A DNA stretch of 64,000 nucleotides, from assembly GCA_964465475.1 (NCBI GenBank), contig CAYXIY010000001.1:44312-108311 (forward strand). Reading direction: 5' to 3'. The notes below the pieces were generated by a model. The model was given only the letters and a program-made list of their open reading frames with translations, did no database searches and had not been told where the DNA came from. Position 1 is the stretch's first letter, and each line of letters starts with the position of its first letter. Positions 1,935 through 62,370 of this stretch are shown piece by piece. Made by a program: the position numbers and the translations under genes. Source of the DNA: an uncultured Acidimicrobium sp. (GTDB lineage: Bacteria; Actinomycetota; Acidimicrobiia; Acidimicrobiales; Ilumatobacteraceae).

Positions 1935-1936
1935 CG

Positions 1937-3387: not shown

Positions 3388-3572
3388 TGGCCACCCTTTT
3401 GGACGTAGTTCTTCACGAACTCTTCGGCATTGGTTTCGAGTACCTCATCGATCTCGGACAACAAATCGTCGAGTTCCGCAACGAGTCCGCTTGTAGGAGT
3501 CGAGGGAACCTCCTCCGACGTTGATTCTTCAACGGTTTTGTGGGGAGTCGACTTCTGAATGCGCTCAGCCAT
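3384..3572 (-). CDS. pup: Prokaryotic ubiquitin-like protein Pup
   Basis: 62-aa acidic protein MAERIQKSTPHK...LDDLLSEIDEVLETNAEEFVKNYVQKGGQ ending in GGQ. Sits between dop and prcB. ATG at 3572 is preferred over the TTG-extended track start at 3590. Confidence 0.85.
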   Translation of the reverse strand: MAERIQKSTPHKTVEESTSEEVPSTPTSGLVAELDDLLSEIDEVLETNAEEFVKNYVQKGGQ

Positions 3573-3615
3573 GAGCCGAGGGTATCGCAAGAAAGCACTC
3601 GATTTCCATCGCTAA

Positions 3616-6759: not shown

Positions 6760-6892
6760 GGCGCCTCCGCTGTGTGTCCCAAGTCTCAACTTACCGAGGT
6801 CTGTCGTGCCCGTCCAATGAGGCCTTGCCTTCGGCATGTGACCTTCAGCGTGTACTCTTGATGAAGCCGAATGGCCTAACGGAAAGGTTGTT

Positions 6893-12207: not shown

Positions 12208-12219
12208 ACAGTAGTTGGC

Positions 12220-43129: not shown

Positions 43130-43131
43130 CG

Positions 43132-47229: not shown

Positions 47230-47951
47230 ATCGCCGACAGCAGTGTGCTGAGACCGCTGACGGTCAACAATCCGAGAACCGCAAGTCGAAATCGCTCTTC
47301 GTTGATGTGTCGTCGTATCAACACCCCGACGAAACCCCCGAGGATCAAGAAGGGCACCGAGGCAGCCGAAAGCGCGACTTCATCGAGCGAGATCTTGCCT
47401 CGCACCGCGAAGATCACCGCCGCGTACAGGCCACTGAAAACGAAGACGGTGTTGAGGGTGGCCCTGAAGACGTCGGGTGCAACTTTTCTGGCCTGGAGCA
47501 CGAAGACGAGTGGTGGACCATTCGTCGACGTTGCCGTGTTCAACACTCCGCTCACGAGCCCGAAGACGTAGTCGAACCATCGACCCTTCCTCGAACCGTC
47601 GTAGCCGCGCTGTAGGACGAGAACACCGAACAGGATCGACACTCCAAGCACCAACTTCAGCCATCTCTCGTCGACCGTGAACAGGACGAACGCACCGAAC
47701 GGTCCTCCAATGACAGTGCAGGCGAGAAATCGTCTGGTGTAGGCAGGATGGATCGAGCGACGACCCTGCACAGCATGTCCGAGGTTCCCCAGAGTGCCGA
47801 CGAGAGTTGCAATGATGACCGCCTCGTCGAGATTGAGCCGCAACAGCAAAAACGGAACGGTGAGGAGGGCGAAGCCAAAACCAGCTGAGGCCTGGACGAG
47901 CGACGTCGCGAGGATGACACCACAGACCAACACCAGATCTGCTGCACTCAC
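47226..47951 (-). CDS. TauE/SafE (TSUP) family anion/sulfite exporter
   Basis: 241 aa polytopic protein, Gly-rich TM helices and an internal duplication typical of TSUP. Confidence 0.8.
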   Translation of the reverse strand: MSAADLVLVCGVILATSLVQASAGFGFALLTVPFLLLRLNLDEAVIIATLVGTLGNLGHAVQGRRSIHPAYTRRFLACTVIGGPFGAFVLFTVDERWLKLVLGVSILFGVLVLQRGYDGSRKGRWFDYVFGLVSGVLNTATSTNGPPLVFVLQARKVAPDVFRATLNTVFVFSGLYAAVIFAVRGKISLDEVALSAASVPFLILGGFVGVLIRRHINEERFRLAVLGLLTVSGLSTLLSAI

Positions 47952-47952
47952 G

Positions 47953-49290
47953 TCAGATCAGTTTCTCTACAGCCTCGACGAAGGCGGCCGTATGTGCGTC
48001 AACGTCCTTGTCGACGTGACTCGGGCACATCAACGCCATGTTGTGGAATGGAGTCAGCAAGATGCCCCGATTGAGAGCGCTCAGATGGAAGTACTCCTCG
48101 AGCTCGTGGTCGACACGTGAGGCAGCCTCAGCACCATCGTGTGGAGCGTCGCTGAACCAGTACTCCGCCCTGCAGCCAAGCTGCTGGACTGACCAGGGCA
48201 GCGAATGTTGCGTGATGACGCCCTGCACACCGTCGGCCCACCGCGTGGCGAGCGGAATGGTGTGCGCAAAGTGCTCCGCGAGGAGCGACGTCGTGAGGGT
48301 CGCCTTCATCACGGCCATCGCGAGTGCACTTCCGCTCAGCGTTCCACCCACTCCACCAACGTCGATCGAATCTCGGTCGAGCATCTCCTCGAGCCGAGTG
48401 GCGACTTCCGCCGACATCCCATATGCCGCTACGGGAACGCCACCACCGATCGTCTTGCCGATGACCACGAAGTCCGGGTCCAGATTCCACAAGGACGTAC
48501 ATCCGCCAGGCGATGCACAAATCGTGTGCGTCTCGTCGATCACAAGGAGGACGCCATACCGGCGAGTCAACTCGCGCACGCCTTCCAAGTATCCGTCTTT
48601 CGGCAGGACTATGCCGATGTTGGTGAGGGCCGGCTCCATGAGTACGCACGCCACGTCCCCCTGTCGCAGCGCGTCTTCCATTGCGCGAAGGTCATTGAAG
48701 GGCACGGCACGTGTGGTGAGTGCCGGATCGACCTGCGGACCGATCGCCCCAGGTCGACTGACGGTCCTGCCCGTCTCGTCGAGTACCACGAGGGTTTCGT
48801 CGACCGTGCCGTGATAGCACCAATCGTTGACCACGATCTTGGGTCGCTTGGTCATGAAACGTGCAAACCTCAGGACGAAGCGGTTTGCATCCGTGGCACT
48901 CAAGGCAAACTGCCATTTTGGAACACCGAAGCGTGCCGCCAGGTTCTCCGCGACGACAAGTGCATCGCTACTCGGCAGCATCGAGGTGAGGCCGATCCGA
49001 GACTGCGAGACCAACGCGTCCGTCACGGCAGTTGTCGAATGACCGACCATCGAGCCCGTGTCACCAAGGCAAAAATCGACGTATTCGTGGCCGTCGACAT
49101 CGACGAAACGGCCTCCTTGGGCTTCGGCGATGAACAACGGAAATGAGCCGGCCCATCGCGTCATCCATGGCATCGGAACGCCCGAGACCAAATGCTGTCT
49201 GGCCTCGTGTGCAAGTTCCCGAGAACGACGGTGACGGGACGCAAAGACTTCCATCTCTTCGCGCATCGCATCGGCTAGGCGTCTCTTCAT
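47953..49290 (-). CDS. Class-III (GSA-aminomutase-like) PLP-dependent aminotransferase
   Basis: ...DFCLGDTGSMVGHS..., DETHT and GKTIGGG (PLP Lys). ATG at 49290 with a GGGGG RBS. Confidence 0.8.
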   Translation of the reverse strand: MKRRLADAMREEMEVFASRHRRSRELAHEARQHLVSGVPMPWMTRWAGSFPLFIAEAQGGRFVDVDGHEYVDFCLGDTGSMVGHSTTAVTDALVSQSRIGLTSMLPSSDALVVAENLAARFGVPKWQFALSATDANRFVLRFARFMTKRPKIVVNDWCYHGTVDETLVVLDETGRTVSRPGAIGPQVDPALTTRAVPFNDLRAMEDALRQGDVACVLMEPALTNIGIVLPKDGYLEGVRELTRRYGVLLVIDETHTICASPGGCTSLWNLDPDFVVIGKTIGGGVPVAAYGMSAEVATRLEEMLDRDSIDVGGVGGTLSGSALAMAVMKATLTTSLLAEHFAHTIPLATRWADGVQGVITQHSLPWSVQQLGCRAEYWFSDAPHDGAEAASRVDHELEEYFHLSALNRGILLTPFHNMALMCPSHVDKDVDAHTAAFVEAVEKLI

Positions 49291-49345
49291 CACGCCCCCA
49301 GTCTTGCCGACGACGACCACTCGACTCGCTCTCTAGACTGGCGAC

Positions 49346-50611
49346 GTGACCATCGCGACCTCGATGCCCTCGGACGTGAGGATTTCGTTTCCTCGTCTGA
49401 GAGGTCGGATCGACGCTCTCGCCTCGATCGGCGCAACCGATGCCGGTGGCTCGTGCAGGCTCGCGTTGACGGACGAGGATCGGCAGGGCCGCGACCTCAT
49501 CGTCGGATGGATGCGAGACCTTGGGATGGACGTGACCATCGACGTCATCGGCAACATCGTCGGGGTGTGGAATGTGGGCACGGGCCAGCCAGTCATGACT
49601 GGTTCCCACATCGATACCGTTCGCACGGGCGGCATCTACGACGGAAACTACGGCGTACTGGCCGGCCTCGAAGTCGTAGAGGCGTGCCAGCAGGCAGGAA
49701 TCACACCAAAGCGACCCCTTGCAGTTGCAGTCTTCACCGACGAGGAAGGGGCACGATTCGCCCCGGACATGCTGGGCTCACTCGTCTACGTCGGCGGGCT
49801 TGGCGTTGAAGAGGCGCTCGACATCCGCGCCATCGACGGTGCTCGGCTGGGTGACGAATTGACCAACATCGGCTACGCAGGCATGACCCCGTGTCCTGGT
49901 CTCGTTCCACACGCTTTCATCGAACTGCACATCGAACAGGGCCCGGTGCTCGAGGCGAAGTCAATGCGTCTCGGAGCTGTGACCGGTGTACAAGGCATCT
50001 CGTGGCAGGAAGTCACGATCGTCGGCCAGTCCAACCATGCCGGGACGACACCGATGGCACTGCGTCGGGATCCCGTTGCGGCAGGTGCAGCCCTTACGTC
50101 GTTCCTCCACGATCTCGCCCACCGCTATGGCGGCAATCAGGTCTGCACGGTGGGCAAGTTCGACGTCCATCCGAACCTCGTCAACGTCGTCGCCGCTCGA
50201 GTGCAGATGACCCTTGACGTGCGTAACACCGACGAGACTCTCTTGCGACAGGCAGAGAACGAGATTCACGAGTTTGTCCGTACGCTCGAGTCCTCCTTTG
50301 GGGTGTCCGTTTCATTCCGCACTCTCGCCCGCTTCGAGCCCGTCGACTTCGACCCTGCGGTCATCGACTTGGTCGATTCCTTGTGCCGCGAGGTCACCGA
50401 CAAAACGATGCGAATGCCGAGCGGAGCGGGCCACGATGCCCAGATGTTGGCTCGAGTCTGTCCGACCGCGATGATTTTCGTTCCAAGCCGAGACGGCATC
50501 AGCCACAACCCGGCTGAGCACACGGACGATCACGATCTTGAAAACGGCGCGAACGTGTTGCTTCGCGCGATGCTCGCACTTTCAGAACATGACTTTGAGG
50601 CTGCATCGTGA
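49346..50611 (+). CDS. M20 Zn-amidase of the hydantoinase/carbamoylase family (allantoate amidohydrolase / N-carbamoyl-L-amino-acid hydrolase / beta-ureidopropionase type)
   Basis: 421 aa, ...GSHIDTVRTGGIYDG..., TDEEGARF, HAGTTPM, GAGHDA, and ISHNPAE at the C-terminus. Confidence 0.85.
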   Translation: MTIATSMPSDVRISFPRLRGRIDALASIGATDAGGSCRLALTDEDRQGRDLIVGWMRDLGMDVTIDVIGNIVGVWNVGTGQPVMTGSHIDTVRTGGIYDGNYGVLAGLEVVEACQQAGITPKRPLAVAVFTDEEGARFAPDMLGSLVYVGGLGVEEALDIRAIDGARLGDELTNIGYAGMTPCPGLVPHAFIELHIEQGPVLEAKSMRLGAVTGVQGISWQEVTIVGQSNHAGTTPMALRRDPVAAGAALTSFLHDLAHRYGGNQVCTVGKFDVHPNLVNVVAARVQMTLDVRNTDETLLRQAENEIHEFVRTLESSFGVSVSFRTLARFEPVDFDPAVIDLVDSLCREVTDKTMRMPSGAGHDAQMLARVCPTAMIFVPSRDGISHNPAEHTDDHDLENGANVLLRAMLALSEHDFEAAS

Positions 50612-51555
50612 CCCGAAACGTCCGCATCGCCGCTGCACAACTTGGCCCAATCCAACGAGCGGACGACCGACCCAGCGTCGTCGCCCGTCTGGTGTCGCTC
50701 ATGGACGAGGCGCATCGTCACGACGTCGACCTCGTCGTCTACCCAGAATTGGCGTTGACCACGTTCTTCCCCCGATGGTTCGTCGACGACATCACGGAGG
50801 CCGATCACTGGTACGAGCGTGAAATGCCGTCCCCAGTCGTCGCTCCGCTCTTCGATGCTGCTCGGGCTTATGGCATCGGCTTCTGCCTCGGCTATGCAGA
50901 ACTCACCCCCGAAGGCGAACGGTTCAACACCCAGATGCTCGTCGAACGAGATGGAACCGTCGTTGGTAAGTATCGCAAGGTGCACATCCCCGGCCATGAG
51001 CACCACGAACCCGATCGGCCTTTCCAACATGCTGAGCGCTACTACTTCACGCCAAGCATGGAGGGCTTCCCCGTCTGGTCGGCCTTTGGTGGACGCGTCG
51101 GCATGATGATTTGCAACGACCGTCGTTGGCCCGAGTCCTATCGAGTCATGGGGCTACAGGGCGTCGAAATGATCCTGTGCGGCTACAACACTCCGTTGCA
51201 CTACGTCCCGGATCCGACCCAAGACCCGCTACAAGGATTCCACAACGCCCTCGTCATGCAATCCGGTGCGTATCAGAACGGGACGTTCGTCGTCGGAGTC
51301 GCAAAGGGAGGTGTCGAGGAAGGCGTCGACAGCCTTGCCGACAGCATGATCGTCGCCCCATCGGGCGAGATCCTGGCCAAGGCCAGCACATCCGGCGACG
51401 AACTCGTTTGGGCCGACTGCGACCTGGACTGGTGCTATCAGTACAAGGACACCCTGTTCGACTTCAACCGATACAGGAGACCTGAGCTCTACGGGCGCAT
51501 CTCGGGACAGCGAGGGGTCGACCCCTCCGACAGGGGTCCTTTTAACAAACTGTAA
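50608..51555 (+). CDS. Carbon-nitrogen hydrolase, N-carbamoyl-D-amino-acid hydrolase (DCase)-like
   Basis: Collinear by eye with Agrobacterium D-carbamoylase. Shared segments are YPELALTTFFPRW (Glu), GKYRKVHIPGH (Lys), MMICNDRRWPE (Cys) and GYNTP. Confidence 0.85.
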   Translation: MTRNVRIAAAQLGPIQRADDRPSVVARLVSLMDEAHRHDVDLVVYPELALTTFFPRWFVDDITEADHWYEREMPSPVVAPLFDAARAYGIGFCLGYAELTPEGERFNTQMLVERDGTVVGKYRKVHIPGHEHHEPDRPFQHAERYYFTPSMEGFPVWSAFGGRVGMMICNDRRWPESYRVMGLQGVEMILCGYNTPLHYVPDPTQDPLQGFHNALVMQSGAYQNGTFVVGVAKGGVEEGVDSLADSMIVAPSGEILAKASTSGDELVWADCDLDWCYQYKDTLFDFNRYRRPELYGRISGQRGVDPSDRGPFNKL

Positions 51556-51586
51556 AAGCGTTTTCCTTGCCCTGTAAGGTGAACCT

Positions 51587-54181
51587 ATGTCGTTGGGGGC
51601 ACGCGAGGCGGTCGTCGGCTTTGTCGTCAACGGCACGCCCGTTTCCGTCCGGTCATCCCACCCACACCTGCTCGCAGCCCTCCGCGAAGAGTTGGACATC
51701 ACCTCACCAAAGGATGGTTGCTCCCCAAGCGGCCAATGTGGCTGTTGCACCGTCATCGTCAACGGCAAGGCCGTCGTCAGCTGCCAGACACCGCTTGACA
51801 AGGTCGAAGGCGGCACCGTCACCACTCTCGAGGGCTTCGATCCAGCAGTTCGCAAATCGTTTTCGGATGCATTCTCCGCCTGTGGAGGTTTGCAATGCGG
51901 ATTTTGCATACCCGGAATCGTCGTCCGCGCGCACGCACAGATCGAAAAGAAGGGTGCCGACCTCACCAAGGCGGACATGGCACGCCATCTCGGAGCGCAC
52001 CTCTGTCGCTGCACGGGCTACTCGAAGATTCTCGATGCGATCGAATGCGTCGCCAAAGGAACAACCGTCACACCGGCGCCACTCGGGGGCATCGGGGCTC
52101 GGTCGTCGAAGGTCGAGGCAGCCGAACTGACGCTCGGCGATCGCGGCTACGTCGACGACATCAGAATCCCTGGAATGCTGCACGCAGCGCTCGTCTTCAC
52201 CGCCCATGCACGAGCTGACGTTGTCGCCATCGATACGAGCCGCGCTCGACAGGCACCAGGAGTCGTTGCCGTCTATACGGCAGCCGACATCCCTGGTGAT
52301 CTCATGGTCGGGATCATCTACAAGGACTGGCCGGTCATGATTCCGGTCGGCGGTCGAACCTCGTATGCCGGAGACGTGCTTGCGATCGTCGTCGCTGAGA
52401 CGAAGGACGAGGCGCGTGCGGCGGTAGCCGACGTCGAGGTCGACTACGTCGTGCACACACCGATCACCGACCCCCTGGTTGCCCTCCACGGTCCTGACAT
52501 CGCGGTCTGGAAGACGGAGTCGAACGTGCTCAGCACGAGCTCGTACACCCGCGGAGACGTCGATGCGGCCCTCGCGTCGTGCGCGCACGTCGTCAGCGAG
52601 CGCTTCACCACGCAACGGATCGAGCACGCCTTCTTGGAGCCCGAGTCGACCCTGGCGGTCTACGACGGCGACCGAGACCACCTGCACGTCTATTCCGGTG
52701 GCCAGGGCATCTGGGACGATCGCAACGACATCGCCAGAGTTCTCGGCATCACCAACGACAAGGTGACCGTCGAACTCATCACCAATGGCGGTGCTTTCGG
52801 TGGCAAGGAAGACATGTCGAACCAAGCACACGCCTCGCTGGCCGCGTGGCTGCTGAAGAAGCCCGTGAAATGCACGTTGTCGCGCGAAGAGAGCTTCCGC
52901 ATGCACGCAAAACGCCATCCGATCACGATGGATTACGTCGCCGGCTGCGACGCCGACGGCAAGCTCGTAGCACTCAAGGTGCGCGCGATCGGTGACAGTG
53001 GTGCATACGCCAGCGTGGGCATGAAGGTGTTGGAGCGCATGGCCGGACACGCAAGCGGCCCGTATCACGTCCCACACATCGACGTCGAGGCACTCGCCAT
53101 GCGGACCAACAATCCGATCTGCGGCGCGTTTCGCGGCTTCGGTGCCAATCAAGCACAGTTTGCGATGGAAGGCGTCCTCGACCGGCTCGCTCAAATGTGT
53201 GGAATTGACGGCTGGGAGATTCGTTCCCGGAACGTCATCAAGCCGGGAATGGTGTGGGGACCGGGCCAAATCATGGATGACGGTTGCCTCGGTGCTGAGG
53301 CGTGCCTTGAAGCGGTCAAGGACACCTACTACGAAGCCAAGAGTGCGGGCAAAGGCGTCGGGGTCGGTCTTGGTCTCAAGAACAGCGGACTCGGAAACGG
53401 GTTCAAGGAAATCACCAAAGCGGTCGTGCGCCTGCGAGCAGATGGAGTCACCGAAGTCCGCCACGGATGGACCGAAATGGGCCAGGGAATCAACACCATC
53501 GCCGCTCAGGTCGTGGTTCACGAGCTCGGCGTCGACCCAGAGTCGATCGTCGTCATCGTCGACACGACCCGTGAGCTTGGACTTGGACAAACGACCGGCT
53601 CACGTGGGACCCTCATGGGGGCCGGCGCCGTCAAAGCAGCGTGTGACACGGCGAAGGCGAACGGACTCGCCAAGGACGTCGATCACCTCGGCGAGTACCG
53701 GGTCGACTGGACGACGAAGCTCGGGGATCCCGGCGTCACGAATCCGATCATCCATTCGACCTTCGGCTATGCAGCACAGCTCGTCGTCATGGACCGTGAC
53801 ACACAAAAGATCGAGAAGGTTGTCGCCGCTCACGACGTCGGCAAGGCAATGAATCCGCTGTTGTGCGAGGGCCAGATCGAAGGAAGCGTGCACATGGGCC
53901 TCGGATACGCACTCACCGAGGACTTCCCGTCGGATCCCGAGACGGGATTCCCCACGTTCTCCACGTTGCGTCAGCTCGGGATCATTCGCGCGAAGGATGT
54001 GCCGCCGATCGAGGTTCGCCTCATCGAGTCACCGCAACCGAATGCACCGTACGGGATCAAGGGCGTAGGAGAAATCGGCCTGGTTCCGACCGCTGGCGCC
54101 GTGGCTGCTGCGCTCCACTCGTGCGACGGTCGTTGGCGCACCTCCCTGCCGATGAAGGACGCCGCGGGCGAGGAGGACTGA
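51587..54181 (+). CDS. Fused [2Fe-2S]x2 + molybdopterin hydroxylase without FAD domain (XdhD / aldehyde-oxidoreductase architecture)
   Basis: N-terminus has GCSPSGQCGCCTV, CGFCIPG and CRCTGY. The Moco domains of about 700 aa end in ...PYGIKGVGEIG (catalytic Glu context). Confidence 0.85.
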   Translation: MSLGAREAVVGFVVNGTPVSVRSSHPHLLAALREELDITSPKDGCSPSGQCGCCTVIVNGKAVVSCQTPLDKVEGGTVTTLEGFDPAVRKSFSDAFSACGGLQCGFCIPGIVVRAHAQIEKKGADLTKADMARHLGAHLCRCTGYSKILDAIECVAKGTTVTPAPLGGIGARSSKVEAAELTLGDRGYVDDIRIPGMLHAALVFTAHARADVVAIDTSRARQAPGVVAVYTAADIPGDLMVGIIYKDWPVMIPVGGRTSYAGDVLAIVVAETKDEARAAVADVEVDYVVHTPITDPLVALHGPDIAVWKTESNVLSTSSYTRGDVDAALASCAHVVSERFTTQRIEHAFLEPESTLAVYDGDRDHLHVYSGGQGIWDDRNDIARVLGITNDKVTVELITNGGAFGGKEDMSNQAHASLAAWLLKKPVKCTLSREESFRMHAKRHPITMDYVAGCDADGKLVALKVRAIGDSGAYASVGMKVLERMAGHASGPYHVPHIDVEALAMRTNNPICGAFRGFGANQAQFAMEGVLDRLAQMCGIDGWEIRSRNVIKPGMVWGPGQIMDDGCLGAEACLEAVKDTYYEAKSAGKGVGVGLGLKNSGLGNGFKEITKAVVRLRADGVTEVRHGWTEMGQGINTIAAQVVVHELGVDPESIVVIVDTTRELGLGQTTGSRGTLMGAGAVKAACDTAKANGLAKDVDHLGEYRVDWTTKLGDPGVTNPIIHSTFGYAAQLVVMDRDTQKIEKVVAAHDVGKAMNPLLCEGQIEGSVHMGLGYALTEDFPSDPETGFPTFSTLRQLGIIRAKDVPPIEVRLIESPQPNAPYGIKGVGEIGLVPTAGAVAAALHSCDGRWRTSLPMKDAAGEED

Positions 54182-54182
54182 C

Positions 54183-55253
54183 GTGTCAGACACGACGCCC
54201 GGCTTCGTCTGCGCCCACCACCACCTCTATTCGACGCTTGCGCGAGGCATGCCCAGTCCTCCGCGGACACCAACCGACTTCATCGAGGTCCTTCAACAGG
54301 TGTGGTGGCGCCTCGATGCCGCACTGGACGACGAGATGATCTACTGGAGTGCCAAGATGGGCGCAATTGAAGCCGTGATGGCAGGAACGACTTGCATCAT
54401 CGATCATCACGAGTCGCCGAACGCGATCAAGGGATCACTGGCGCTGATCGAACAGGCCTGCACCGAAGTGGGAGTGCGCGTGAATGCGTCCTATGGGGTG
54501 ACCGATCGCTGGACCGAGGACGGACGACTCCTCGACCGGGTCGAACCGTCGTCATCGATGACATCGTCCGCACGAGCGGGTCTCGAGGAGAATCGTCGGC
54601 ATTTGGCGGCCGGCGGTCGCGGGATGGTCGGAGTGCACGCCGCCTTCACCGTCTCTGATGAGACGTTGTCTGCCGCGGCAAATCTTGCGCTCGAGTTCAA
54701 CGTCGGTGTCCATGTCCACGTTGCCGAAGGTCCAGACGATGCCGGTGCGTACGAACGCTTGGTGGACCTTGCCACGGATCGATGGCTGATCATCCATGGA
54801 GTACACCTCGACAAGCCACTCAACGGAACGCTCGTGCACAATCCCCGATCAAACATGAACAACTCGGTCGGCTACGCACATCCAACTCGCACGTCCATGC
54901 CCGTGGCACTCGGAACGGACGGAATCGGTGCCGACATGCCGGAGGAAGCGCGCGTGGCCTTTGCTCGGTTGAGGGAATCCGACCTCACTGCAGGCGCCGA
55001 TGTCATTGGCTCATGGATCGACAACAGTCGCCGACTCTTTCCAGAGTCCCTTTCGGACACGGTGACCTGGAACTACGACTCCATGGACTCCCCGTGGCAC
55101 CTCGCCTACACACCGGGAACGCGACCACGCACGGTCGTCGTCGATGGGCGCACCATCCTCGACAACGGAGTACCCACTCTCGTCGACATCGACGAGGTGC
55201 GACATCACGCTTCACTTCAGGCAAAACGTCTCCACGAAAGGCTGGCAGCATGA
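54183..55253 (+). CDS. SsnA-like amidohydrolase (COG0402 group), N-terminally short
   Basis: Starts ...[18 protein letters not shown]...[16 protein letters not shown], the SsnA-type HxHxYSxxxRG/WWRLD signature. It begins 2 nt after the preceding stop. Later His/Asp metal ligands are present ([17 protein letters not shown]). Confidence 0.7.
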
Positions 55254-56293
55254 GCCTCCCACGACAGGCAGTCAATCCGAGCACTGGACACGCCCGCATG
55301 GCGGTGTACCTCCAAGATGCGCATCCCATCCGTGAGGGGATGGAGATCGCCAAGTATGCCGAGGCGAAGGGATTCGAGGCGGTGTGGCAGGCCGAAAGTC
55401 GCCTCGTTCGAGAGGCGACCGTGCCGATGGCGGCATTCGCATCGGTGACCTCGACGCTCAAGGTCGGCTCTGGAGTCGTCGATTGTTGGAGTCGTAACCC
55501 GGCTCGTCTGGCAGCGACGTTTTCGACCCTCGATGACCTCGCCCGCGATCGCGTGATCCTCGGCATCGGCGCCTGGTGGGATCCTCTCGCACAGAAGGTC
55601 GGCATTTCGCGAGCCAAGCCACTTCGCGCAATGAAGGAGATCGTGCTCAACGTACGAGCACTCCTGAACAACGAAAACGTCACCTTCCATGGAGAATTCG
55701 TCAACTTTGACGGAATCGAACTCGACTACGTCTATCAAGAACGTCGACCCAAGAACGTTCCGATCTACATCGGCGCGACAGGGATGCAGATGATGGAACT
55801 CACGGGTGAGATTGCCGATGGAGTCGTTCTCAACTACCTCGTCTCCCCCGACTACAACACCACTGCGATCGAAGCGCTCCAGAAGGGCGCGGACAAGGCG
55901 GGGCGTCGCCTGGAGGACATCGATCGTCCACAGCTCGTCGTCTGTAGCGTGCACGAGGATCGCAAGACCGCGCTCGACATGGCGCGCCAGATGGTCACTC
56001 AATACCTGGGTCAGCAGCCGCACATCATGAAGGCATCAGGAGTCCCCCAGTCGCTTCTCGACAAGGTCGGCGAGGAACTCACGTGGCCTGCGACTCACGA
56101 GCAGGTCGTCGCTGCGTCGCGTCACGTTCCAGACGAGATCGTCCAAATGCTGACTGCAAGTGGAACGCCTGCGGAGGCCCGCCAGCAAGTTCGCCACTAC
56201 ATCGACAATGGCGCGACGTGTCCGATCCTCTATCCGCTCGGCGACACGAAGGCGATGATCGACGCCTTCTCTGGATGGGACGGCACCACGTGA
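55250..56293 (+). CDS. LLM-class (luciferase-like, F420/FMN-dependent; Mer-like) oxidoreductase
   Basis: ...[18 protein letters not shown]..., with TIM-barrel LLM signatures. ATGA overlap with the upstream stop. An alternative ATG is at 55298. Confidence 0.8.
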
Positions 56294-57138
56294 GCGTTGC
56301 CACACCCCGACGCCTCGACGAGGCGCTTGCATTCAGGCGCGACAATCCCTCTGCCCTCGTCATCACTGGCGGCACCGACTTGATGGTTGAGGTCAACTTC
56401 AACCGCCGCAAGCCCGAGGACGTGCTCTCCCTCGCGCGAGTCGATGAACTGCATCGCGTCGACACGTCGTCACCATCGGTCGTGCGAATCGGAGCGGCGG
56501 TTCCGTGGGCCCGGATGGAACGTGGCGATCTCGCACGACTACTCCCCGCTCTTGCGGAGGCAGCGCGCACCGTCGGATCGCCGCAAATCCGTCAAGCCGG
56601 CACTCTCGGCGGCAATCTCGGCACGTGCTCACCCGCTGGTGACGGACTCCCCGTCCTTGGCGCCCTCGACGCATCGATCGTGTTGAGGTCCACCTCGACA
56701 GAGCGAATCGTGCCGTTTAGCGACTTCATGGTTGGGCCGAAGCGAAACGTCCTCCAGCCAGACGAACTCATCACGGCTGTCGAAATTCCCTTGACCTCCT
56801 CGTGGCAGGGGTACTCGAAGGTCGGAGTACGCAATGCGATGGTCATCTCCGTCGCGTCTGCCTGCGCCGCGCTCTCGAAGGATGGATCGCACCTGTCCAT
56901 CGCGCTCGGAGCGGTAGGTCCCACGATCATCCGATGCACTGCCACCGAGCAGTGGCTGACCGGTCTTGGAAGGCCCGCTATCGAGACCTTGACCTCACCC
57001 ACGACTCGCCATGAACTCGGCGAGCGGGCTGCGGCAGAGGCACGACCGATCACCGATCACCGATCGACGGCGGACTATCGACGCCACGCAATTTCCGTCA
57101 TCGTTCGTCGCCTCGCCGAAAGGGCCATCAATGAATGA
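56290..57138 (+). CDS. Xanthine dehydrogenase family FAD-binding subunit (CoxM-like)
   Basis: [15 protein letters not shown] and GTLGGNL motifs. GTGA overlap with the LLM stop. Confidence 0.85.
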
Positions 57139-57613
57139 GCAGTATTCCCTGAACGTGAATGGCGAGTCGCGGGAGGTTCGCGACTCGTGGGTCGGAGAAT
57201 CACTCCTCTACGTGCTTCGTCAGCGACTCGGCCTTCCGGGAACCAAGGGAGCCTGTGAACAGGGCGAGTGCGGTTCCTGCACGGTGCTCGTGGATGGGAA
57301 CGCGGTGTGCTCATGCCTCGTGATGGCCGCCACCTGCGTCGACACACAGATCACGACGGTCGAAGGACTCGGTGACGGACAGGCGTTGACGGACGTCCAA
57401 CAGGCATTCGTCGAGGCCGGCGGTGTTCAATGCGGCTTTTGTACTCCAGGGTTGATCGTCGCAGTTCACGACCTGCTCGAGGACAACCCGTCACCGACGA
57501 CGTCTCAGGTGAAAGAGGCGCTCTCGGGCAACATCTGCCGTTGCACCGGGTACGGACGGATCTTTGACGCCGTCCAGCTCGTCATCTCAAGGCGCACCGG
57601 AGTGAGCCGATGA
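57131..57613 (+). CDS. Xanthine dehydrogenase family [2Fe-2S] subunit (CoxS-like)
   Basis: CEQGECGSCTV, CGFCTPG and CRCTGY motifs, 160 aa. Confidence 0.9.
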   Translation: MNEQYSLNVNGESREVRDSWVGESLLYVLRQRLGLPGTKGACEQGECGSCTVLVDGNAVCSCLVMAATCVDTQITTVEGLGDGQALTDVQQAFVEAGGVQCGFCTPGLIVAVHDLLEDNPSPTTSQVKEALSGNICRCTGYGRIFDAVQLVISRRTGVSR

Positions 57614-59871
57614 CCATCTCTACCTCGACTCGTACCCGCGACGTCCTCGGAACGAGTGCGCTACGCCCCGATGGTGCTGCCAAGGTTCAGGGAAGTTTCG
57701 AATTCTCCTCTGACGCCAACGACGACAACATGGCGTGGGGAGCCACCCTTCGAAGCCCCCACCCCTATGCGCGGATCGTGTCGATCGACGTCTCGGGCGC
57801 ATACGCGATTGCCGGCGTCCACGCCGTCGTCACCGCCGCAGACGTTCCTGGAAAGGCGACGTATGGTCTCATCAGTTCCGACCAGCCCGTCTTTGCCTCC
57901 GACTACGTGCGGTACATGGGCGAGCCAGTCGCTGCAGTCGCAGCAGACCATCCCGAGACCGCTCGTCGGGCACTCCAGGCAATCTCGGTCACCTACGAGG
58001 TCCTCCGACCGCTTACCGACCCCGAGGAAGCCATCTCGGGCAACCACGAGCCGATTCATCCCCATGGAAACATCCTGCGCAAGCAGAACATCGTGCGCGG
58101 TGACCAGACCATCACGGGCGAAGTCGTCGTCGAAGACACCTATGACATCGGGATGCAGGACCAAGCGTTCCTCGGTCTCGAAGCGGCCCTTGCTCGACCC
58201 CTTGCGAAGGGAGGCGTCGAGCTCATCGTTGCCACCCAGTGGCTGCACGAGGACCGAAAGCAGATCGCCGACTGCCTCGCACTCGCCGAGGAGGACGTGT
58301 TCCTTACGCTCGGTGGTGTCGGGGGTGCGTTTGGCGCTCGAGAAGACATCAGCTTGCAGGTGCACTGTTGTCTGCTCGCCCTCACCATCAATCGACCCGT
58401 CAAGATGCAGTACGGGCGCGAAGAGTCGTTCTTCGGACACGTCCATCGTCACCCGGCCAAGATCTGGATGCGCCACCACGCGACACGAGAAGGAAAGATC
58501 CAACGGATCGAAGCTCGCATGGTCTTCGATGGCGGTGCGTACACCAGTACGTCTCCCGCGGTCTTGATCAACGGCATCACGCACACCCAGGGTCCGTACG
58601 CGTGCGACAACGCCACGGTCGAGGGATTCGCCGTGCGCACCAACAATCCCCCATGTGGAGCCATGCGTGGCTTCGGTGTCGTGCAGGCGTGCTTTGCGCA
58701 CGAGTCGCAGATGGACAAACTGGCCGAAGCGTGCGGGCTTTCGCCAGTCGAGATCCGGCTTCGCAATGCAATGAAAACCGGAGATCCCTTGATCACGGGC
58801 CAGCCCGTGGAGAGCGTCGCCCCGGTGGAACGATGCATTCGCGAGACCGCCGCCATACCCCTTCCCCCTGCACTTGACGGGTCCGACCCACTCAACTTGC
58901 CTGGCGGTTCAGGGCTCACGACGCGCTCGGCCCACGTCGTACGCGGCATCGGTTGGGGTGTGTCGATCAAGAATCTGATGTACAGCGAAGGATTCGACGA
59001 CTACGCAACCGCCCGTTGCATCCTCCGTGACGGCGTCGCGTACCTCAAGTTCGCCACGTCGGAAGTTGGGCAAGGCTTCGTCACCCTCGCACCCCAGATC
59101 GCACGAACCCTGCTCGGTGTCGACGAGGTTGTCCTCGAGCCAATGGACACCGGGATCGGGTCTGCGGGCTCGACATCTGCTTCACGCCAGACCTGGATGA
59201 GCGGCGGAGCCGTCGACGGAGCCTGTCGCGTCGTCCGAGAACGGCTGTTCGAACACGTCGGCGCGGTGCATGGGGTTGACCCGATCCGCTTGTCGATCGA
59301 CGGTACGGACGTCGTCGACCAGCTGGGGACCCTCCGCGTTCCGGTCTCTGAGGCGAGTGCGGGAGTCGAGTTCTCCCACACCTACGAGCACCACCACCGC
59401 AAGACAGAAGATCTCGACGAAAACGGGCAGGGAAACTGTCACGTGGCGTTCGCCTTCGTGGCACACCGTGCCGTGGTCGACGTCGACGTCGAGCTTGGAC
59501 TCGTGAAGGTGGTCCAGATCGCGACCGCTCAGGACGTCGGTCAGGTCCTCAACCCTCTGTCCGTCCTCGGACAGATCGAAGGCGGCATAGCCCAAGGTCT
59601 CGGCCTTGCGATCATGGAAGAAATCATCGTCGACAACGGAATCGTCCGTAATCCGTCGTTCACCGACTACCTGCTACCAACCGCACTCGACGCCCCTGAC
59701 GTCGTTGCGGTCACGATCGAAGAGCCCGAGCCACAGGCCCCTCTTGGTGCAAAGGGAGTCGGCGAACCACCCTGTATTTCGGTTACGCCCGCAATCGTTG
59801 CCGCCATTCGCGACGCTACGAAGCGCTCGCTGACGAGGGTTCCGGTTCGTCCTTACGACATTTGCATTTGA
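57610..59871 (+). CDS. Xanthine dehydrogenase family molybdopterin-binding subunit (CoxL-like)
   Basis: 753 aa with GGVGGAFGARED and ...PLGAKGVGEPP (catalytic Glu). ATGA overlap with the FeS subunit stop. Confidence 0.9.
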   Translation: MTISTSTRTRDVLGTSALRPDGAAKVQGSFEFSSDANDDNMAWGATLRSPHPYARIVSIDVSGAYAIAGVHAVVTAADVPGKATYGLISSDQPVFASDYVRYMGEPVAAVAADHPETARRALQAISVTYEVLRPLTDPEEAISGNHEPIHPHGNILRKQNIVRGDQTITGEVVVEDTYDIGMQDQAFLGLEAALARPLAKGGVELIVATQWLHEDRKQIADCLALAEEDVFLTLGGVGGAFGAREDISLQVHCCLLALTINRPVKMQYGREESFFGHVHRHPAKIWMRHHATREGKIQRIEARMVFDGGAYTSTSPAVLINGITHTQGPYACDNATVEGFAVRTNNPPCGAMRGFGVVQACFAHESQMDKLAEACGLSPVEIRLRNAMKTGDPLITGQPVESVAPVERCIRETAAIPLPPALDGSDPLNLPGGSGLTTRSAHVVRGIGWGVSIKNLMYSEGFDDYATARCILRDGVAYLKFATSEVGQGFVTLAPQIARTLLGVDEVVLEPMDTGIGSAGSTSASRQTWMSGGAVDGACRVVRERLFEHVGAVHGVDPIRLSIDGTDVVDQLGTLRVPVSEASAGVEFSHTYEHHHRKTEDLDENGQGNCHVAFAFVAHRAVVDVDVELGLVKVVQIATAQDVGQVLNPLSVLGQIEGGIAQGLGLAIMEEIIVDNGIVRNPSFTDYLLPTALDAPDVVAVTIEEPEPQAPLGAKGVGEPPCISVTPAIVAAIRDATKRSLTRVPVRPYDICI

Positions 59872-61046
59872 TCGAGAAGCGATCTCGTCGGAACCGTGCC
59901 GATGGCACCGATGGCGTCGGCCACCGCCTCTTCGGGGGCGTCGAACGGGAAATCGGTGAACTCCACCTCCACGTCTGACCCCTTCAACAGCCGCTGGGTC
60001 GATTTCTTCGCACTCGCATCGATCAATGACACGACGACCCCGTCTCGTCCGGCGCGTCCTGTTCGGCCCGAACGATGGATGTAGTCCTTCACGTCTTCGG
60101 GTAGGTCATAGTGGACGACCAACGGAACGTCGTCGATATGAATTCCACGCGCCGCAACGTCCGTCGCAACCATCACGGTCGCCTGCCCCTTCTTGAACTG
60201 CTGGAGGGCCTTCTCGCGCTGCGCCTGAGAGCGGTTGCCATGGATCACGCAGGTCGATACGCCGGCTGCGTCCAGGTTCTTCGCCACACGGTCGGAACCA
60301 TGCTTCGTTCGACAAAAGACGATCACCTTTTCGTACGAATTCGCAAGGACCGTGAGTGCCTTCATCCGATCGTTGCGATCGACGACGTGGAATCGGTGTT
60401 CCACCTCTCCGCCGTCGTCAGGGACCTCGACCTCGTGTCGAACCGGCTCGCGCTGGAACTCCTTGACCAACGACTTGATGTCGCCGTCGAGGGTCGCCGA
60501 AAACAACAGCGTCTGGCGATCGGCTTTTGCCATCCTCATGATCTTCTTGACCGACGGCAGGAAGCCCATGTCCGCCATTCGGTCGGCCTCGTCGATCACC
60601 GCAAGGTTCACGTCCTGCAAGGAGACCGCTCGCCGTTCGATCAGGTCCTCGAGACGTCCCGGTGTGGCGACGAGTACGGTCGCGTTCCTCGCGAGTTTGA
60701 CCTGAGGTCCGTAGGCCGCGCCTCCGTAGACGGCAGCGACTCGAACGTTGCTTCCCTGGATCAGCTTCCCGATCTCTCCTGCAACCTGCGACGCGAGCTC
60801 TCGGGTCGGAACCAGGACGAGCCCCTGCGGGTGTCCGGGACGACATGAGCCGACCGCAGATGCGAGGACGATGCCGAATGCGAGGGTCTTGCCGCTTCCG
60901 GTCGGAGCCTTGCCACACACGTCCTTGCCGGCGAGTGAGTCGCGCAGCGTCGCCTCCTGGATCGGAAAGGGAGCCGAGATGCCCCGTGATTCCAGGTTCT
61001 TCACGATGTGGGCCGGGACGCCCAAATCTTTCCAGCTCGTCGTCAT
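59853..61046 (-). CDS. DEAD-box ATP-dependent RNA helicase
   Basis: APTGSGKTLAF, PTRELA, DEAD (VIDEADRM), SAT and HRSGRTGRAG motifs. Confidence 0.9.
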   Translation of the reverse strand: MTTSWKDLGVPAHIVKNLESRGISAPFPIQEATLRDSLAGKDVCGKAPTGSGKTLAFGIVLASAVGSCRPGHPQGLVLVPTRELASQVAGEIGKLIQGSNVRVAAVYGGAAYGPQVKLARNATVLVATPGRLEDLIERRAVSLQDVNLAVIDEADRMADMGFLPSVKKIMRMAKADRQTLLFSATLDGDIKSLVKEFQREPVRHEVEVPDDGGEVEHRFHVVDRNDRMKALTVLANSYEKVIVFCRTKHGSDRVAKNLDAAGVSTCVIHGNRSQAQREKALQQFKKGQATVMVATDVAARGIHIDDVPLVVHYDLPEDVKDYIHRSGRTGRAGRDGVVVSLIDASAKKSTQRLLKGSDVEVEFTDFPFDAPEEAVADAIGAIGTVPTRSLLDQMQMS

Positions 61047-61056
61047 TTTGCTCCGT

Positions 61057-62370
61057 TCAATCAGGAATACCTGATTGGCGACCGAGGACGCGATTCAGAT
61101 ACGCATTGGAGAACATGCCAGTTGGATCGAGGCGATCCCGCAGTTCCACAAACTTGTTGAATTCAGGATAGAGGTCTCGAAGGGTCGAATTGTCCTGAAA
61201 GTGGATCTTTCCCCAGTGCGGGCGCCCGCCATAGTCCACCATGATTGCCTCAACCGCTCGAAAATACGGCTCGTAGTCCATTCCTCGATACATGTGCACC
61301 GCAACATACGCGCTGTCGCGCCCATACGCAGTAGACAACGGGATGTCATCGCCCTTCACCGATCGAACCTCGACGGGAAAACTCACACGAAAGCCACGAT
61401 CATCGACCATCTTGCGGACGCGACCGAGCGCTTCGGGCAGGGCGTCGTAAGGAATCGAATACTCCATCTCGCAGAATCGCACCAGACGCTTGCTTGCGAA
61501 GATCCGATGGCTCGCATCGATCCGCTCCTGTCGACCTTGCGCGGGAAGTGCGGTCGCCAGACGTGGGATGAGTGCGGGAACGGCCTTCCCAACTCGGCAT
61601 ACCGCACCGAACGCCAGGTTCTCCATCACCATCTTGTTCCAGAACGTCGCAACTGGACGTCGAGTGGTATGGGCGGCGGTCGAACGATTGTTGCGTTTGG
61701 TGAGTGCCCACTTCGTATGCGGCACCCAGTAGAACTCAAAATGATCGTTCTCCCTTGTGTATCGATCGAAGTTGTGCTCGACGTCTACGACCGGTTGTGG
61801 ATACTCGACTGCGTGCAACGAGAAAGCGGGGACGACTCGTAACGTCACGTCGAGAATCACCCCGAGCGCCCCGAGTGACACCCGACCCGCCGACCACACC
61901 TCTCGGTTCTCGTTCTCCGAGCACACGAGGACCTCACCTGAAGACGTCAGCAAGGTGAATGCAACGACCTGCGTGGCAAGACCACCGAGAGCGATACCGG
62001 TGCCGTGCGTCGACGTCGACAATGCCCCGACGATCGACTGATAGGTCACGTCGCCGAGATTGGGCATGGCATAGCCCCGTTCCGCGAGAAGTTCGTTCAA
62101 ATCCGCGATCGTCGTGCCTGCGCGCACGGTTACGGTTTGCCCTTCGGTGTCGAGATGGATGATTCCTGCATACCGCTCAAGATCCAGGATGATCTCTTCA
62201 GGTCGCGCGATGCCCGTGAAGCTGTGTCCCGAACCGACGACCTTCACCCGCCGTCCCGTCCTGCGGGCTTCGGCAATCACGCGCTGAATGTCATCAGAAC
62301 TACTCACCGAGCCATACGACGAGAGACCGCGCGCACGTTGGTTTCCTGCCCAGTTCCTCCACGATGTCAT
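61057..62370 (-). CDS. FAD-linked oxidoreductase, L-gulono/D-arabinono-1,4-lactone oxidase/dehydrogenase family
   Basis: MTSWRNWAGNQ..., VVGSGHSF (PCMH FAD domain) and C-terminal GGRPHWGK (ALO domain). The ATG at 62370 overlaps the MFS stop (ATGA). The longer track N-terminus is rejected. Confidence 0.8.
   Translation of the reverse strand: MTSWRNWAGNQRARGLSSYGSVSSSDDIQRVIAEARRTGRRVKVVGSGHSFTGIARPEEIILDLERYAGIIHLDTEGQTVTVRAGTTIADLNELLAERGYAMPNLGDVTYQSIVGALSTSTHGTGIALGGLATQVVAFTLLTSSGEVLVCSENENREVWSAGRVSLGALGVILDVTLRVVPAFSLHAVEYPQPVVDVEHNFDRYTRENDHFEFYWVPHTKWALTKRNNRSTAAHTTRRPVATFWNKMVMENLAFGAVCRVGKAVPALIPRLATALPAQGRQERIDASHRIFASKRLVRFCEMEYSIPYDALPEALGRVRKMVDDRGFRVSFPVEVRSVKGDDIPLSTAYGRDSAYVAVHMYRGMDYEPYFRAVEAIMVDYGGRPHWGKIHFQDNSTLRDLYPEFNKFVELRDRLDPTGMFSNAYLNRVLGRQSGIPD

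Follow-up and report, generated by a model that had tools for sequence, protein, structure and literature searches.

An operon of eight genes at positions 49346-59871 of a 64,000-nucleotide (nt) stretch of DNA from an uncultured Acidimicrobium sp. (contig CAYXIY010000001.1) probably encodes an oxygen-tolerant, F420-linked and fully hydrolytic variant of the 2,8-dioxopurine, or reductive urate, pathway, joined to a xanthine dehydrogenase (XDH). The whole 64-kb stretch is referred to as the window, and it is the window that statements of absence cover. The proposed link to the 2,8-dioxopurine pathway comes from comparative genomics. A first-pass annotation of the same DNA had held that the substrate could not be read; from the enzymes and their neighbours in related genomes, we now infer it to be urate or 2,8-dioxopurine. 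The genes are listed below, with molybdenum cofactor abbreviated as Moco, flavin adenine dinucleotide as FAD and luciferase-like monooxygenase as LLM.

49346..50611, plus strand: gene 1, M20 amidase (TIGR01879, NF006771)
50608..51555, plus strand: gene 2, CN-hydrolase, D-carbamoylase homologue (PF00795, PDB matches)
51587..54181, plus strand: gene 3, fused 2Fe-2S and Moco protein without an FAD domain (Fer2_2 and Moco domains, TIGR03311 family)
54183..55253, plus strand: gene 4, N-terminally short SsnA homologue of 356 aa (Amidohydro_1, SsnA models)
55250..56293, plus strand: gene 5, LLM oxidoreductase of the F420/Mer type (PF00296, Bac_luciferase)
56290..57138, plus strand: gene 6, FAD-binding subunit, XdhB/PucC-like (PF00941 and PF03450, FAD_binding_5/CO_deh_flav_C)
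57131..57613, plus strand: gene 7, 2Fe-2S subunit, PucE/XdhC-like (PF01799, pucE)
57610..59871, plus strand: gene 8, Moco subunit, PucD-type xanthine dehydrogenase (TIGR03196)

The pathway to which we compare the operon was worked out in 2025 and has been presented as a hallmark of anaerobic, mostly host-associated, selenium-dependent bacteria (PMC12990295; bioRxiv 10.1101/2025.04.24.650524); a commentary describes it as restricted to obligate and facultative anaerobes (PMC12990295). Urate is converted to 2,8-dioxopurine ('yanthine') by XdhD–YgfM in E. coli and by XdhAC in C. sporogenes (PMC12507026; bioRxiv 10.1101/2025.04.24.650524). The product is dearomatised by YgfK, or by UacX in C. difficile; ring opening by SsnA then yields mainly ureidomethyl-hydantoin, together with 5-ureidodihydrouracil, and HyuA forms 2,3-diureidopropionate (PMC12507026). 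Its two ureido groups are stripped by YgeW (with the carbamate kinase YqeA) or UacY, a D-aminoacylase homologue, and by YgeY, after which YgeX converts 2,3-diaminopropionate (DAP) to pyruvate (PMC12507026). XdhAC is selenium-dependent, and SelD and YqeBC are present in all gut carriers (bioRxiv 10.1101/2025.04.24.650524).

For the window we propose the following scheme. The FAD/Fe-S/Moco enzyme of genes 6–8 (56290-59871), a PucD-type XDH, is proposed to oxidise hypoxanthine and xanthine to urate, from which the FAD-less Fe-S/Moco enzyme (51587-54181) would remove the C6 oxygen to give 2,8-dioxopurine. The Mer-like LLM (55250-56293) is proposed to act as an F420H2-dependent 2,8-dioxopurine reductase in place of YgfK or UacX, and thus to dearomatise the ring. 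The short SsnA (54183-55253) would hydrolyse the C4 amidine of the reduced 2,8-dioxopurine, opening one ring to give ureidomethyl-hydantoin or 5-ureidodihydrouracil; the second (hydantoin or dihydrouracil) ring would be opened by an enzyme encoded outside the window. The D-carbamoylase and the allantoate-amidohydrolase-like M20 amidase would then hydrolyse the two ureido groups, leaving DAP, CO2 and NH3. All of the substrates, the use of F420, the assignment of each carbamoylase to a ureido group and the direction of the reaction of the FAD-less enzyme are predictions of this scheme. The substitutions would suit an aerobe: an F420 hydride enzyme would take the place of a multi-[4Fe-4S] flavoprotein, and hydrolysis that of an ATP-conserving phosphorolysis. 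If the scheme is correct, the presence of an XDH and an FAD-less dehydroxylase in one operon would make the conversion of xanthine to 2,8-dioxopurine an almost redox-neutral isomerisation.

Much of the evidence comes from related genomes. A scan of one genome per GTDB species gave at least 599 pattern matches and at least 590 confirmed relatives with a short SsnA; the locus surveys described below, in which loci carry L-numbers, cover the best 80 of these at least 590 relatives. The best 80 belong almost entirely to Acidimicrobiia (Ilumatobacteraceae, or freshwater acIV, marine metagenome-assembled genomes (MAGs) and sponge-associated 'Ca. Poriferisodalis'), and include one Chloroflexia MAG and one Egicoccus MAG. 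Co-occurrence of the genes was borne out by tblastn with the window proteins: the full eight-gene order is found in 16 species-representative genomes, often with the same flanks, and parts of it in dozens more. Because the order recurs in this way, the arrangement is not a product of chance. A five-gene core of M20 amidase, CN-hydrolase, FAD-less hydroxylase, SsnA and LLM, with the XDH trio upstream or divergent, is present in L001, L008, L036, L044, L058, L064, L068 and L072. Among loci with enough flanking sequence, 42 of 50 have the CN-hydrolase, 36 of 50 the FAD-less hydroxylase, 36 of 50 the M20 amidase (counted over related loci that extend at least 5 kb upstream) and 33 of 47 the LLM. 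The FAD-less hydroxylase and the LLM co-vary, with both present in 38 loci, neither in 10, the LLM alone in four and the hydroxylase alone in three; two of these last three have a divergent LLM and the other a YgfK-like gene.

The canonical partners of SsnA are found beside the same short SsnA in several relatives, where the short protein is 58-64% identical to that of the window. In L041, from Acidimicrobiia, it is followed at once by a bona fide YgfK (TIGR03315, 888.5 bits against a cut-off of 835.3), and its 5' neighbours are two pyridoxal-phosphate (PLP) enzymes, a carbamate kinase (TIGR00746, 364 against 358) and two carbamoyltransferases; genes for the M20 amidase and CN-hydrolase are absent from this locus. 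The gene content of L041 implies that LLM and YgfK are interchangeable next to the short SsnA, and that the pair of M20 amidase and D-carbamoylase is interchangeable with two carbamoyltransferases plus a carbamate kinase. The latter exchange is what would be expected if the pair served to remove two ureido groups. The order in L041 (4083-14402) is two carbamoyltransferases, carbamate kinase, threonine-synthase-like and CysK-like PLP enzymes, short SsnA and YgfK; the two PLP enzymes recur in L050, L064 and L072. YgfK-like genes also lie 3' of the short SsnA in L077 (Chloroflexia) and L073. DAP ammonia-lyase (NF006058, 309 against 276; 30-40% identical to E. coli YgeX) directly follows the short SsnA or the LLM in L036, L046, L065, L073, L079 and L080, and a D-hydantoinase (TIGR02033, 506 against 393; 42% identical to E. 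coli HyuA) is present in three of the 80 loci (L036, L068 and L080). An 8-oxoguanine deaminase, the product of which is urate, is encoded in six loci (NF006055, 538 against 532). Homologues of YqeB and YqeC occur within 10 kb in L052, and of YqeC in L068. A near-full set is found in L036 (Microthrixaceae): hydantoinase, XDH trio, M20 amidase, CN-hydrolase, hydroxylase, SsnA, LLM, DAP lyase and 8-oxoguanine deaminase. Since canonical partners stand beside the same short SsnA in related genomes, the LLM, D-carbamoylase and M20 amidase appear to behave as non-orthologous replacements. The first-pass annotation had suggested that the operon follows the logic of the E. coli and clostridial loci with different parts, and both these neighbourhoods and the 2025 papers on the 2,8-dioxopurine pathway support that view.

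In L052 (13871-16252, minus strand) and L068 (20362-21003, minus strand), both marine Acidimicrobiia MAGs, the YqeC-like and split YqeB-like genes, which are markers of the selenium-cofactor trait, each lie beside a second, distant LLM paralogue (26-27% identity).

A physical link between two of the enzymes is provided by P0263 (L083, 8001-11510), on a farmland-soil metagenome contig. It encodes a natural-looking fusion of 1169 aa, in which an FAD-less hydroxylase (47% identity) is joined to a short SsnA-like domain (42%), and is followed, with a 4-nt overlap, by a 473-aa PALP gene. As a Rosetta-stone protein, P0263 ties the FAD-less hydroxylase to the SsnA-like enzyme. Three other apparent fusions, P0227, P0266 and P0154, were discarded, as their Arg-rich wrong-frame stretches have the look of frameshift artefacts.

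The first-pass annotation had likened gene 3 to an XdhD-type fused hydroxylase. The protein is indeed fused and FAD-less; it is not an XdhD orthologue, being 23% identical to E. coli XdhD and scoring 166 bits with the XdhD family model TIGR03313 against 828.0 bits with TIGR03311, 'selenium-dependent xanthine dehydrogenase' (cut-off 830.45). We take TIGR03311 to be the family of the clostridial and enterococcal XdhAC. At family level, a urate-dehydroxylase-type Fe-S/Moco gene stands beside SsnA, with gene 3 lying 1 nt upstream of gene 4. Gene 3 is probably a urate 6-dehydroxylase (equivalent to 2,8-dioxopurine dehydrogenase, DOPDH) rather than a hydroxylase. An identity as an aldehyde oxidoreductase was rejected: the Mop-type model gives 400 bits against 828 for TIGR03311, despite the Mop-type structure 1dgj being the best PDB match, which is explained by shared architecture.

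Gene 8 scores above the cut-off of the pucD model (TIGR03196, 829.7 bits against 783.65) and, with genes for an FAD and a 2Fe-2S subunit adjacent, belongs to a PucD-type enzyme. This three-subunit enzyme had been read as a stand-in for one of the missing partners; a PucD-type XDH supplying urate is the role we propose instead. Gene 6 matches PF00941 (152.6 bits), PF03450 (44.3 bits) and, below cut-off, XdhB_XDHase (168 bits). Gene 7 matches PF01799 (109 bits) and, below cut-off, pucE (163 bits), and has both cysteine motifs; the two subunits thus score below their own pucC and pucE cut-offs. Both Moco proteins contain the GGxFG(G/A)(K/R)E, RGFG and GVGE motifs, as GGAFGGKE (401), AFRGFG (514) and GVGE (826) in gene 3 and as GAFGARE (239), AMRGFG (351) and GVGE (716) in gene 8. 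Mapping of the DOPDH active-site differences (F1009V and A1078T/S in bovine xanthine oxidoreductase) and of Arg880 onto both proteins gave no reliable result by PDB alignment, the alignments being to nicotinate dehydrogenase, 4-hydroxybenzoyl-CoA reductase and quinoline oxidoreductase. Among relatives the XDH trio lies in the same operon, upstream or divergent, and once beside a gene of the cytidine/deoxycytidylate-deaminase family (PF00383). This last gene, in a 4.7-Mb Acidimicrobiia genome (L001, 4550-5125, minus strand), separates the five-gene core from the divergent XDH trio; its product could be a feeder enzyme of the guanine-deaminase type, its only NCBIfam match being a weak TadA-like one.

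The best NCBIfam families of gene 4 are the SsnA models NF005540 (245 bits) and TIGR03314 (236.3 bits), which lead the third-ranked family, 8-oxoguanine deaminase (86 bits), by about 160 bits. The protein is 38% identical to residues 56-332 of E. coli SsnA, and in a MAFFT alignment it matches SsnA from about residue 56 to the C-terminus. It carries SsnA-specific motifs that are not found in GuaD or 8-oxoguanine deaminase (WWRLD-ALD, IDHHxSP, HNxRSNMNNxVGY and LGTDGIG), together with metal and catalytic residues in HxH (12-14), HVHVAE (177-182) and GTDG (244-247), and it keeps the HxxE, His and Asp positions. The ORF cannot extend further 5', as only 1 nt separates its start from the end of gene 3. 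In a library clustered at 50% identity, the short family had, fragments aside, one full-length representative (P0013); the next full-length neighbours are mostly 400-450 aa, the length of SsnA, are 40-50% identical and align from about their residue 55. The single cluster and its longer neighbours point to a tight, derived and N-terminally truncated SsnA lineage. An AF2/AlphaFold model of the protein (pLDDT 87.9, pTM 0.90) has as its Foldseek neighbours mononuclear amidohydrolases of the deaminase/chlorohydrolase type, such as isocytosine deaminase 7ww2, TM0936 and 3hpa (TMq about 0.8), and no hydantoinase is among them. In L070, an SsnA-like gene without partners has unrelated neighbours (WS/DGAT, acyl-CoA dehydrogenase and ion exchangers), which marks it as an orphan copy; L067 resembles it by tblastn.

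Gene 5 matches PF00296 with 221 bits. Its top 15 NCBIfam matches are all F420-type LLM families, and in the PDB it matches nothing but F420 enzymes at E<=1e-8 (Mer 1z69 at 131 bits, FGD and fHMAD). It is the most conserved protein of the operon, with 85-94% identity across most freshwater-clade loci; in the same loci identity is 58-64% for the SsnA-like protein, 53-59% for the FAD subunit and 65-70% for the M20 amidase. The exact protein recurs on 15 freshwater metagenome contigs, none longer than 6 kb. In the sponge symbionts 'Ca. Poriferisodalis' (L046, 8885-9895; L079, about 8914-9920), the short SsnA is flanked by a divergent LLM (PF00296, 170 bits) immediately upstream and a DAP ammonia-lyase immediately downstream. 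This LLM goes undetected with the window LLM as query at E<=1e-20 and seems to belong to a second lineage of LLMs that has taken up this position.

Gene 1 scores above the cut-offs of TIGR01879 (391.6 bits against 204) and of NF006771, 'allantoate amidohydrolase' (421.5 against 399). Its closest solved structures are 5thw (347 bits), the L-carbamoylase 3n5f (274), the N-carbamoyl-beta-alanine amidohydrolase 8c46 (260) and AllC 1z2l (216). Allantoate is a close analogue of 2,3-diureidopropionate (PMC12990295), and we propose that the amidase hydrolyses a ureido group, either of 2,3-diureidopropionate or of albizziin, as a functional counterpart of YgeY, to which it shows only 25% identity over 170 aa. 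Gene 2 (PF00795, 168 bits) aligns end to end with solved D-carbamoylases (8i99, 378 bits over residues 1-305; 1fo6, 344 bits) and, with the motifs YPELA (45), YRKVH (122) and ICNDRRWPE (168), is placed among the D-carbamoylases. Its Glu-Lys-Cys triad residues are assigned after those of the Agrobacterium enzyme. It is proposed to be a hydrolytic counterpart of YgeW with YqeA, or of UacY.

In the ygeW–xdhD cluster of E. coli (PMC12507026), as in the operon, a fused Fe-S molybdenum enzyme, an SsnA-type amidohydrolase and a ring reductase are encoded side by side, along with two enzymes for ureido cleavage and, nearby, a separate XDH (xdhABC in E. coli); the window SsnA is 38% identical over the barrel. 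Unlike that cluster, the window contains no homologues of YgfK, HyuA, YgeW, YqeA, YgeY, YgeX, YgfM, YqeB/C, MocA or UacT, its molybdenum enzyme belongs to TIGR03311 rather than TIGR03313, its reductase is an LLM, its SsnA is shorter by about 55 N-terminal residues and its host is an aerobic actinobacterium. The absence of YgfK, HyuA, YgeW, a YgeY-type enzyme and carbamate kinase had been noted at first pass and holds. Since decarbamoylation in the window, unlike that in E. coli, would be hydrolytic, there would be no gain of ATP via carbamate kinase. The clusters of C. sporogenes and C. difficile, in which XdhAC is the DOPDH, share with the window an FAD-less Fe-S/Moco enzyme that lacks a YgfM partner, a separate XDH that feeds in urate (its proposed role here), and hydrolytic removal of the 2-ureido group by a D-specific enzyme (UacY in C. 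difficile; the D-carbamoylase is proposed here). They differ in their reductase (UacX, which is PydA-like, or YgfK, rather than LLM), in the D-aminoacylase fold of the amidohydrolase UacY as opposed to a CN-hydrolase, and in the M20 subfamily of YgeY. The clostridial enzymes are selenium-dependent and are accompanied by SelD and YqeBC.

The use of an LLM is not itself new, because replacement of YgfK by LLM/F420 in the SsnA neighbourhoods of Chloroflexota has already been noted bioinformatically (Li et al. 2025, PMC12507026). There, too, an LLM (PF00296) takes the place of YgfK or UacX next to SsnA; the description is one of Pfam co-occurrence, and gene order, carbamoylase types and SsnA truncation are not described (PMC12507026). 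Compared with that variant, the window operon comes from Acidimicrobiia and has, in addition, a D-carbamoylase, an allantoate-amidohydrolase-like M20 amidase and its own XDH genes. Chloroflexota are a known F420-producing phylum. The pairing of the two carbamoylases, the truncation of SsnA, the inclusion of an XDH in the operon and the abundance in aerobic aquatic Acidimicrobiia all appear to be undescribed; a literature search found no published link between SsnA and Acidimicrobiia. Ring reduction, ring opening and decarbamoylation likewise follow one another in the reductive pyrimidine (Pyd) pathway and in the industrial 'hydantoinase process', with which the operon shares the D-carbamoylase and M20 beta-ureidopropionase/L-carbamoylase families. 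Unlike these, the window has no PydA and no PydB or hydantoinase, and its two molybdenum enzymes and SsnA would have no role in the Pyd pathway.

Several observations weigh against a reductive urate pathway. Four hydrolytic steps are needed and three hydrolases are encoded: tblastn with E. coli HyuA and with the hydantoinase of L080 found no hydantoinase in the window, and the gene 4 model, being deaminase-like and not hydantoinase-like, suggests that the SsnA homologue is unlikely to cover the missing ring-opening step. Queries from E. coli and Acidimicrobiia found no DAP ammonia-lyase (YgeX) in the window either. The first-pass view that the missing partners had been replaced stands for those whose places the LLM, D-carbamoylase and M20 amidase would take; for HyuA and YgeX the window offers no replacement. 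The canonical dearomatising reductase, YgfK (TIGR03315) or UacX, is absent, with an LLM in its position (tblastn with E. coli YgfK found nothing), and in place of the canonical ureido-cleaving set (YgeW, with or without YqeA, or UacY, and YgeY) there are two other carbamoylases. YqeB, YqeC, MocA and a urate permease (UacT/XanQ) are likewise missing from the window; SelD was not searched for. Gene 3 falls 2 bits short of the TIGR03311 cut-off and is distant from the assayed E. coli XdhD, and its relation to the assayed XdhAC of C. sporogenes is presumed from TIGR03311 membership. The SsnA models are the best matches of gene 4, as the first annotation had it; the protein, though, is only 356 aa long, lacks the first 55 or so residues of canonical SsnA (the match spans profile positions 58-353) and lies well under the curated cut-offs (TIGR03314, 236.3 against 455.5; NF005540, 245 against 444). 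All F420-LLM family matches of gene 5 are below cut-off (the best, Mer, at 175 against 276), and there are no F420 biosynthesis genes in the window. The host is aerobic, as indicated by CtaA/COX15. The known pathway, by contrast, has been described as selenium-dependent and restricted to anaerobes; more tentatively, the variant might operate without selenium or a dedicated hydantoinase. Finally, L011, L014, L016, L024, L032, L034, L043, L047 and L078 have the order M20–CN-hydrolase–SsnA–FAD–Fe-S–Moco with no FAD-less hydroxylase or LLM nearby. This clade is nested within the freshwater group and is not predicted by the model unless the genes have moved elsewhere; its flanks hold no substitute reductase, only panBC, esterase, thiolase, beta-lactamase-fold and pyruvate kinase genes.

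The same enzymatic logic, in which a Mo-enzyme redox step is followed by F420-dependent ring reduction, amidine hydrolysis and two decarbamoylations, might instead be applied to another N-heterocycle, such as some other oxopurine, a methylpurine, a compound of the pteridine/lumazine type or a pyrimidine (uracil or barbiturate), with the PucD-type enzyme carrying out the first hydroxylation. We consider this unlikely, while giving it some weight: the substrate specificity of Mo hydroxylases and SsnA-type hydrolases is unreadable from sequence, the SsnA-like protein and the FAD-less hydroxylase both fall below curated equivalog cut-offs, the nearest solved relatives of the LLM act on pterin (Mer), HyuA and YgeX are missing in the clade of the window, and the clade just described keeps an SsnA-like and an XDH-type enzyme without the other two. 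Set against this, the PucD equivalog model is passed, and the exchange of the short SsnA into contexts with YgfK, carbamoyltransferase and carbamate kinase, DAP lyase, D-hydantoinase and 8-oxoguanine deaminase fits a C3-diamine derived from a purine. Two carbamoylases, moreover, imply two ureido groups, as expected of a purine and not of a pyrimidine. In a nicotinate-type (pyridine-ring) pathway, as in Eubacterium barkeri, hydroxylation and ring reduction are followed by an enamidase-like amidohydrolase, so that the hydroxylate, reduce and hydrolyse logic is held in common, and the best solved structure for both Moco proteins is the nicotinate dehydrogenase of E. barkeri, 3hrd (254-276 bits; for gene 3, by the Moco part alone). 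Such a pathway is nonetheless highly improbable here: no ureido intermediates arise in nicotinate catabolism, which leaves two carbamoylases without a role, the residue after the GGxFGG(K/R) motif is Glu in both Moco proteins and Leu in 3hrd, NCBIfam places both proteins with xanthine dehydrogenase families, and the neighbours in related loci are purine-related.

It is also improbable that two unrelated modules simply share a transcript, one for purine oxidation by the two molybdenum enzymes and the other for the use of hydantoins or N-carbamoyl amino acids, with the M20 enzyme perhaps a true allantoate amidohydrolase. D- and L-carbamoylases are classically tied to hydantoin utilisation, the CN-hydrolase is a close D-carbamoylase homologue and the M20 amidase passes NF006771; a hydantoinase, however, accompanies them in only three of the 80 loci. 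Neither the window nor the surveyed related loci contain a hydantoin racemase or genes of the oxidative route (uricase, 5-hydroxyisourate (HIU) hydrolase, 2-oxo-4-hydroxy-4-carboxy-5-ureidoimidazoline (OHCU) decarboxylase, allantoinase and ureidoglycine hydrolase); the absence from the window of uricase, HIU hydrolase, allantoinase and PydA/PydB had been recorded at first pass. The five-gene core, furthermore, moves as a unit while the XDH trio shifts position, and the M20 amidase and CN-hydrolase are replaced as a pair by carbamoyltransferases and carbamate kinase next to SsnA–YgfK.

The eight open reading frames (ORFs) follow one another, in gene order, at spacings of -4, 31, 1, -4, -4, -8 and -4 nt: a GTGA at 50608, a 31-nt spacer before 51587, a 1-nt spacer before 54183, an ATGA at 55250, a GTGA at 56290, an 8-nt overlap at 57131 and an ATGA at 57610. 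Junctions of this kind are typical of translational coupling. The coordinates and all seven junctions are exactly as first annotated, and the family calls were borne out by Pfam and NCBIfam profile searches. A purine-rich, Shine-Dalgarno-like motif lies 6-12 nt 5' of the start of genes 2-8 and is missing from gene 1. A consensus scan of 47500-61500 gave six weak terminator-like sites (8.7 +/- 3.7 in shuffled sequences), none of them at the gene junctions of the operon, in keeping with the first-pass statement that there is no internal terminator hairpin. Its companion statement, that there is no transporter, holds within the operon; genes for a TauE/SafE-family membrane protein and a major facilitator superfamily (MFS) transporter lie just outside. 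No riboswitch or known RNA was found, with zero Rfam matches across the whole window. The operon is bounded as follows.

46513-47229, plus strand: metallo-beta-lactamase-fold protein, near the transaminase and TauE/SafE genes
47226-47951, minus strand: TauE/SafE-family membrane protein, beyond the transaminase and outside the operon
47953..49320, minus strand: class III transaminase, similar to glutamate-1-semialdehyde (GSA) aminomutase, divergent and forming the upstream boundary
59853-61046, minus strand: DEAD-box helicase, convergent and forming the downstream boundary, with a 19-nt overlap with gene 8

The transaminase (NF005453, 627.6 bits against a cut-off of 425; best PDB match 5ykr, 415 bits, itself of unknown function) adjoins the M20 gene in those freshwater-clade loci whose upstream sequence is covered, and is not found in loci with a DAP ammonia-lyase, each gene being present where the other is lacking; this pattern is confounded by phylogeny. 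Because the one is absent where the other is present, the divergent transaminase may be a pathway partner, perhaps a substitute outlet for DAP ammonia-lyase. Transaminase and TauE/SafE genes are both kept beside the operon across the freshwater clade. Elsewhere in the window (579-6837, minus strand; 33674-34552, minus strand; 42332-43995, plus strand) lie housekeeping genes, which include two of the Pup-ligase family (PafA/Dop), an Mpa/ARC ATPase, a proteasome subunit, the haem A synthase CtaA/COX15 and panB–panC; IMPDH is also encoded in the window. Such a housekeeping context identifies the source as an aerobic actinobacterium and indicates a chromosomal position for the operon. A 417-aa ORF at 12031-13284 (plus strand), which overlaps the end of an acetyl-CoA-synthetase-like gene, has a weak C-terminal match to Amidohydro_1 (44 bits). 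It was rejected as the missing hydantoinase on account of this score, its distance of 37 kb and zero tblastn matches with a hydantoinase query.

If the proposed pathway is correct, a urate route regarded as anaerobic also works in abundant oxygen-breathing bacteria of lakes and seas. A differently built version of it would be present in at least 590 species-level genomes, the best 80 of which are mostly aerobic planktonic and sponge-associated Acidimicrobiia, including freshwater acIV. The pathway would then extend much further ecologically, and play a much greater part in the recycling of aquatic nitrogen, than has been assumed. The reduction of 2,8-dioxopurine by a Mer-like LLM would be a candidate for a new F420-dependent reaction, and the three exchanges (YgfK for LLM, carbamoyltransferase and carbamate kinase for D-carbamoylase and M20 amidase, and full-length for short SsnA) could aid the construction of oxygen-tolerant uricolytic strains. 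More tentatively, aerobic and abundant freshwater and marine Acidimicrobiia might use such a re-engineered reductive urate pathway as their main route of purine-nitrogen salvage, with an F420H2-dependent LLM replacing the O2-sensitive Fe-S flavoenzyme, carbamoylases replacing the carbamoyltransferase and kinase, and a truncated SsnA opening the ring.

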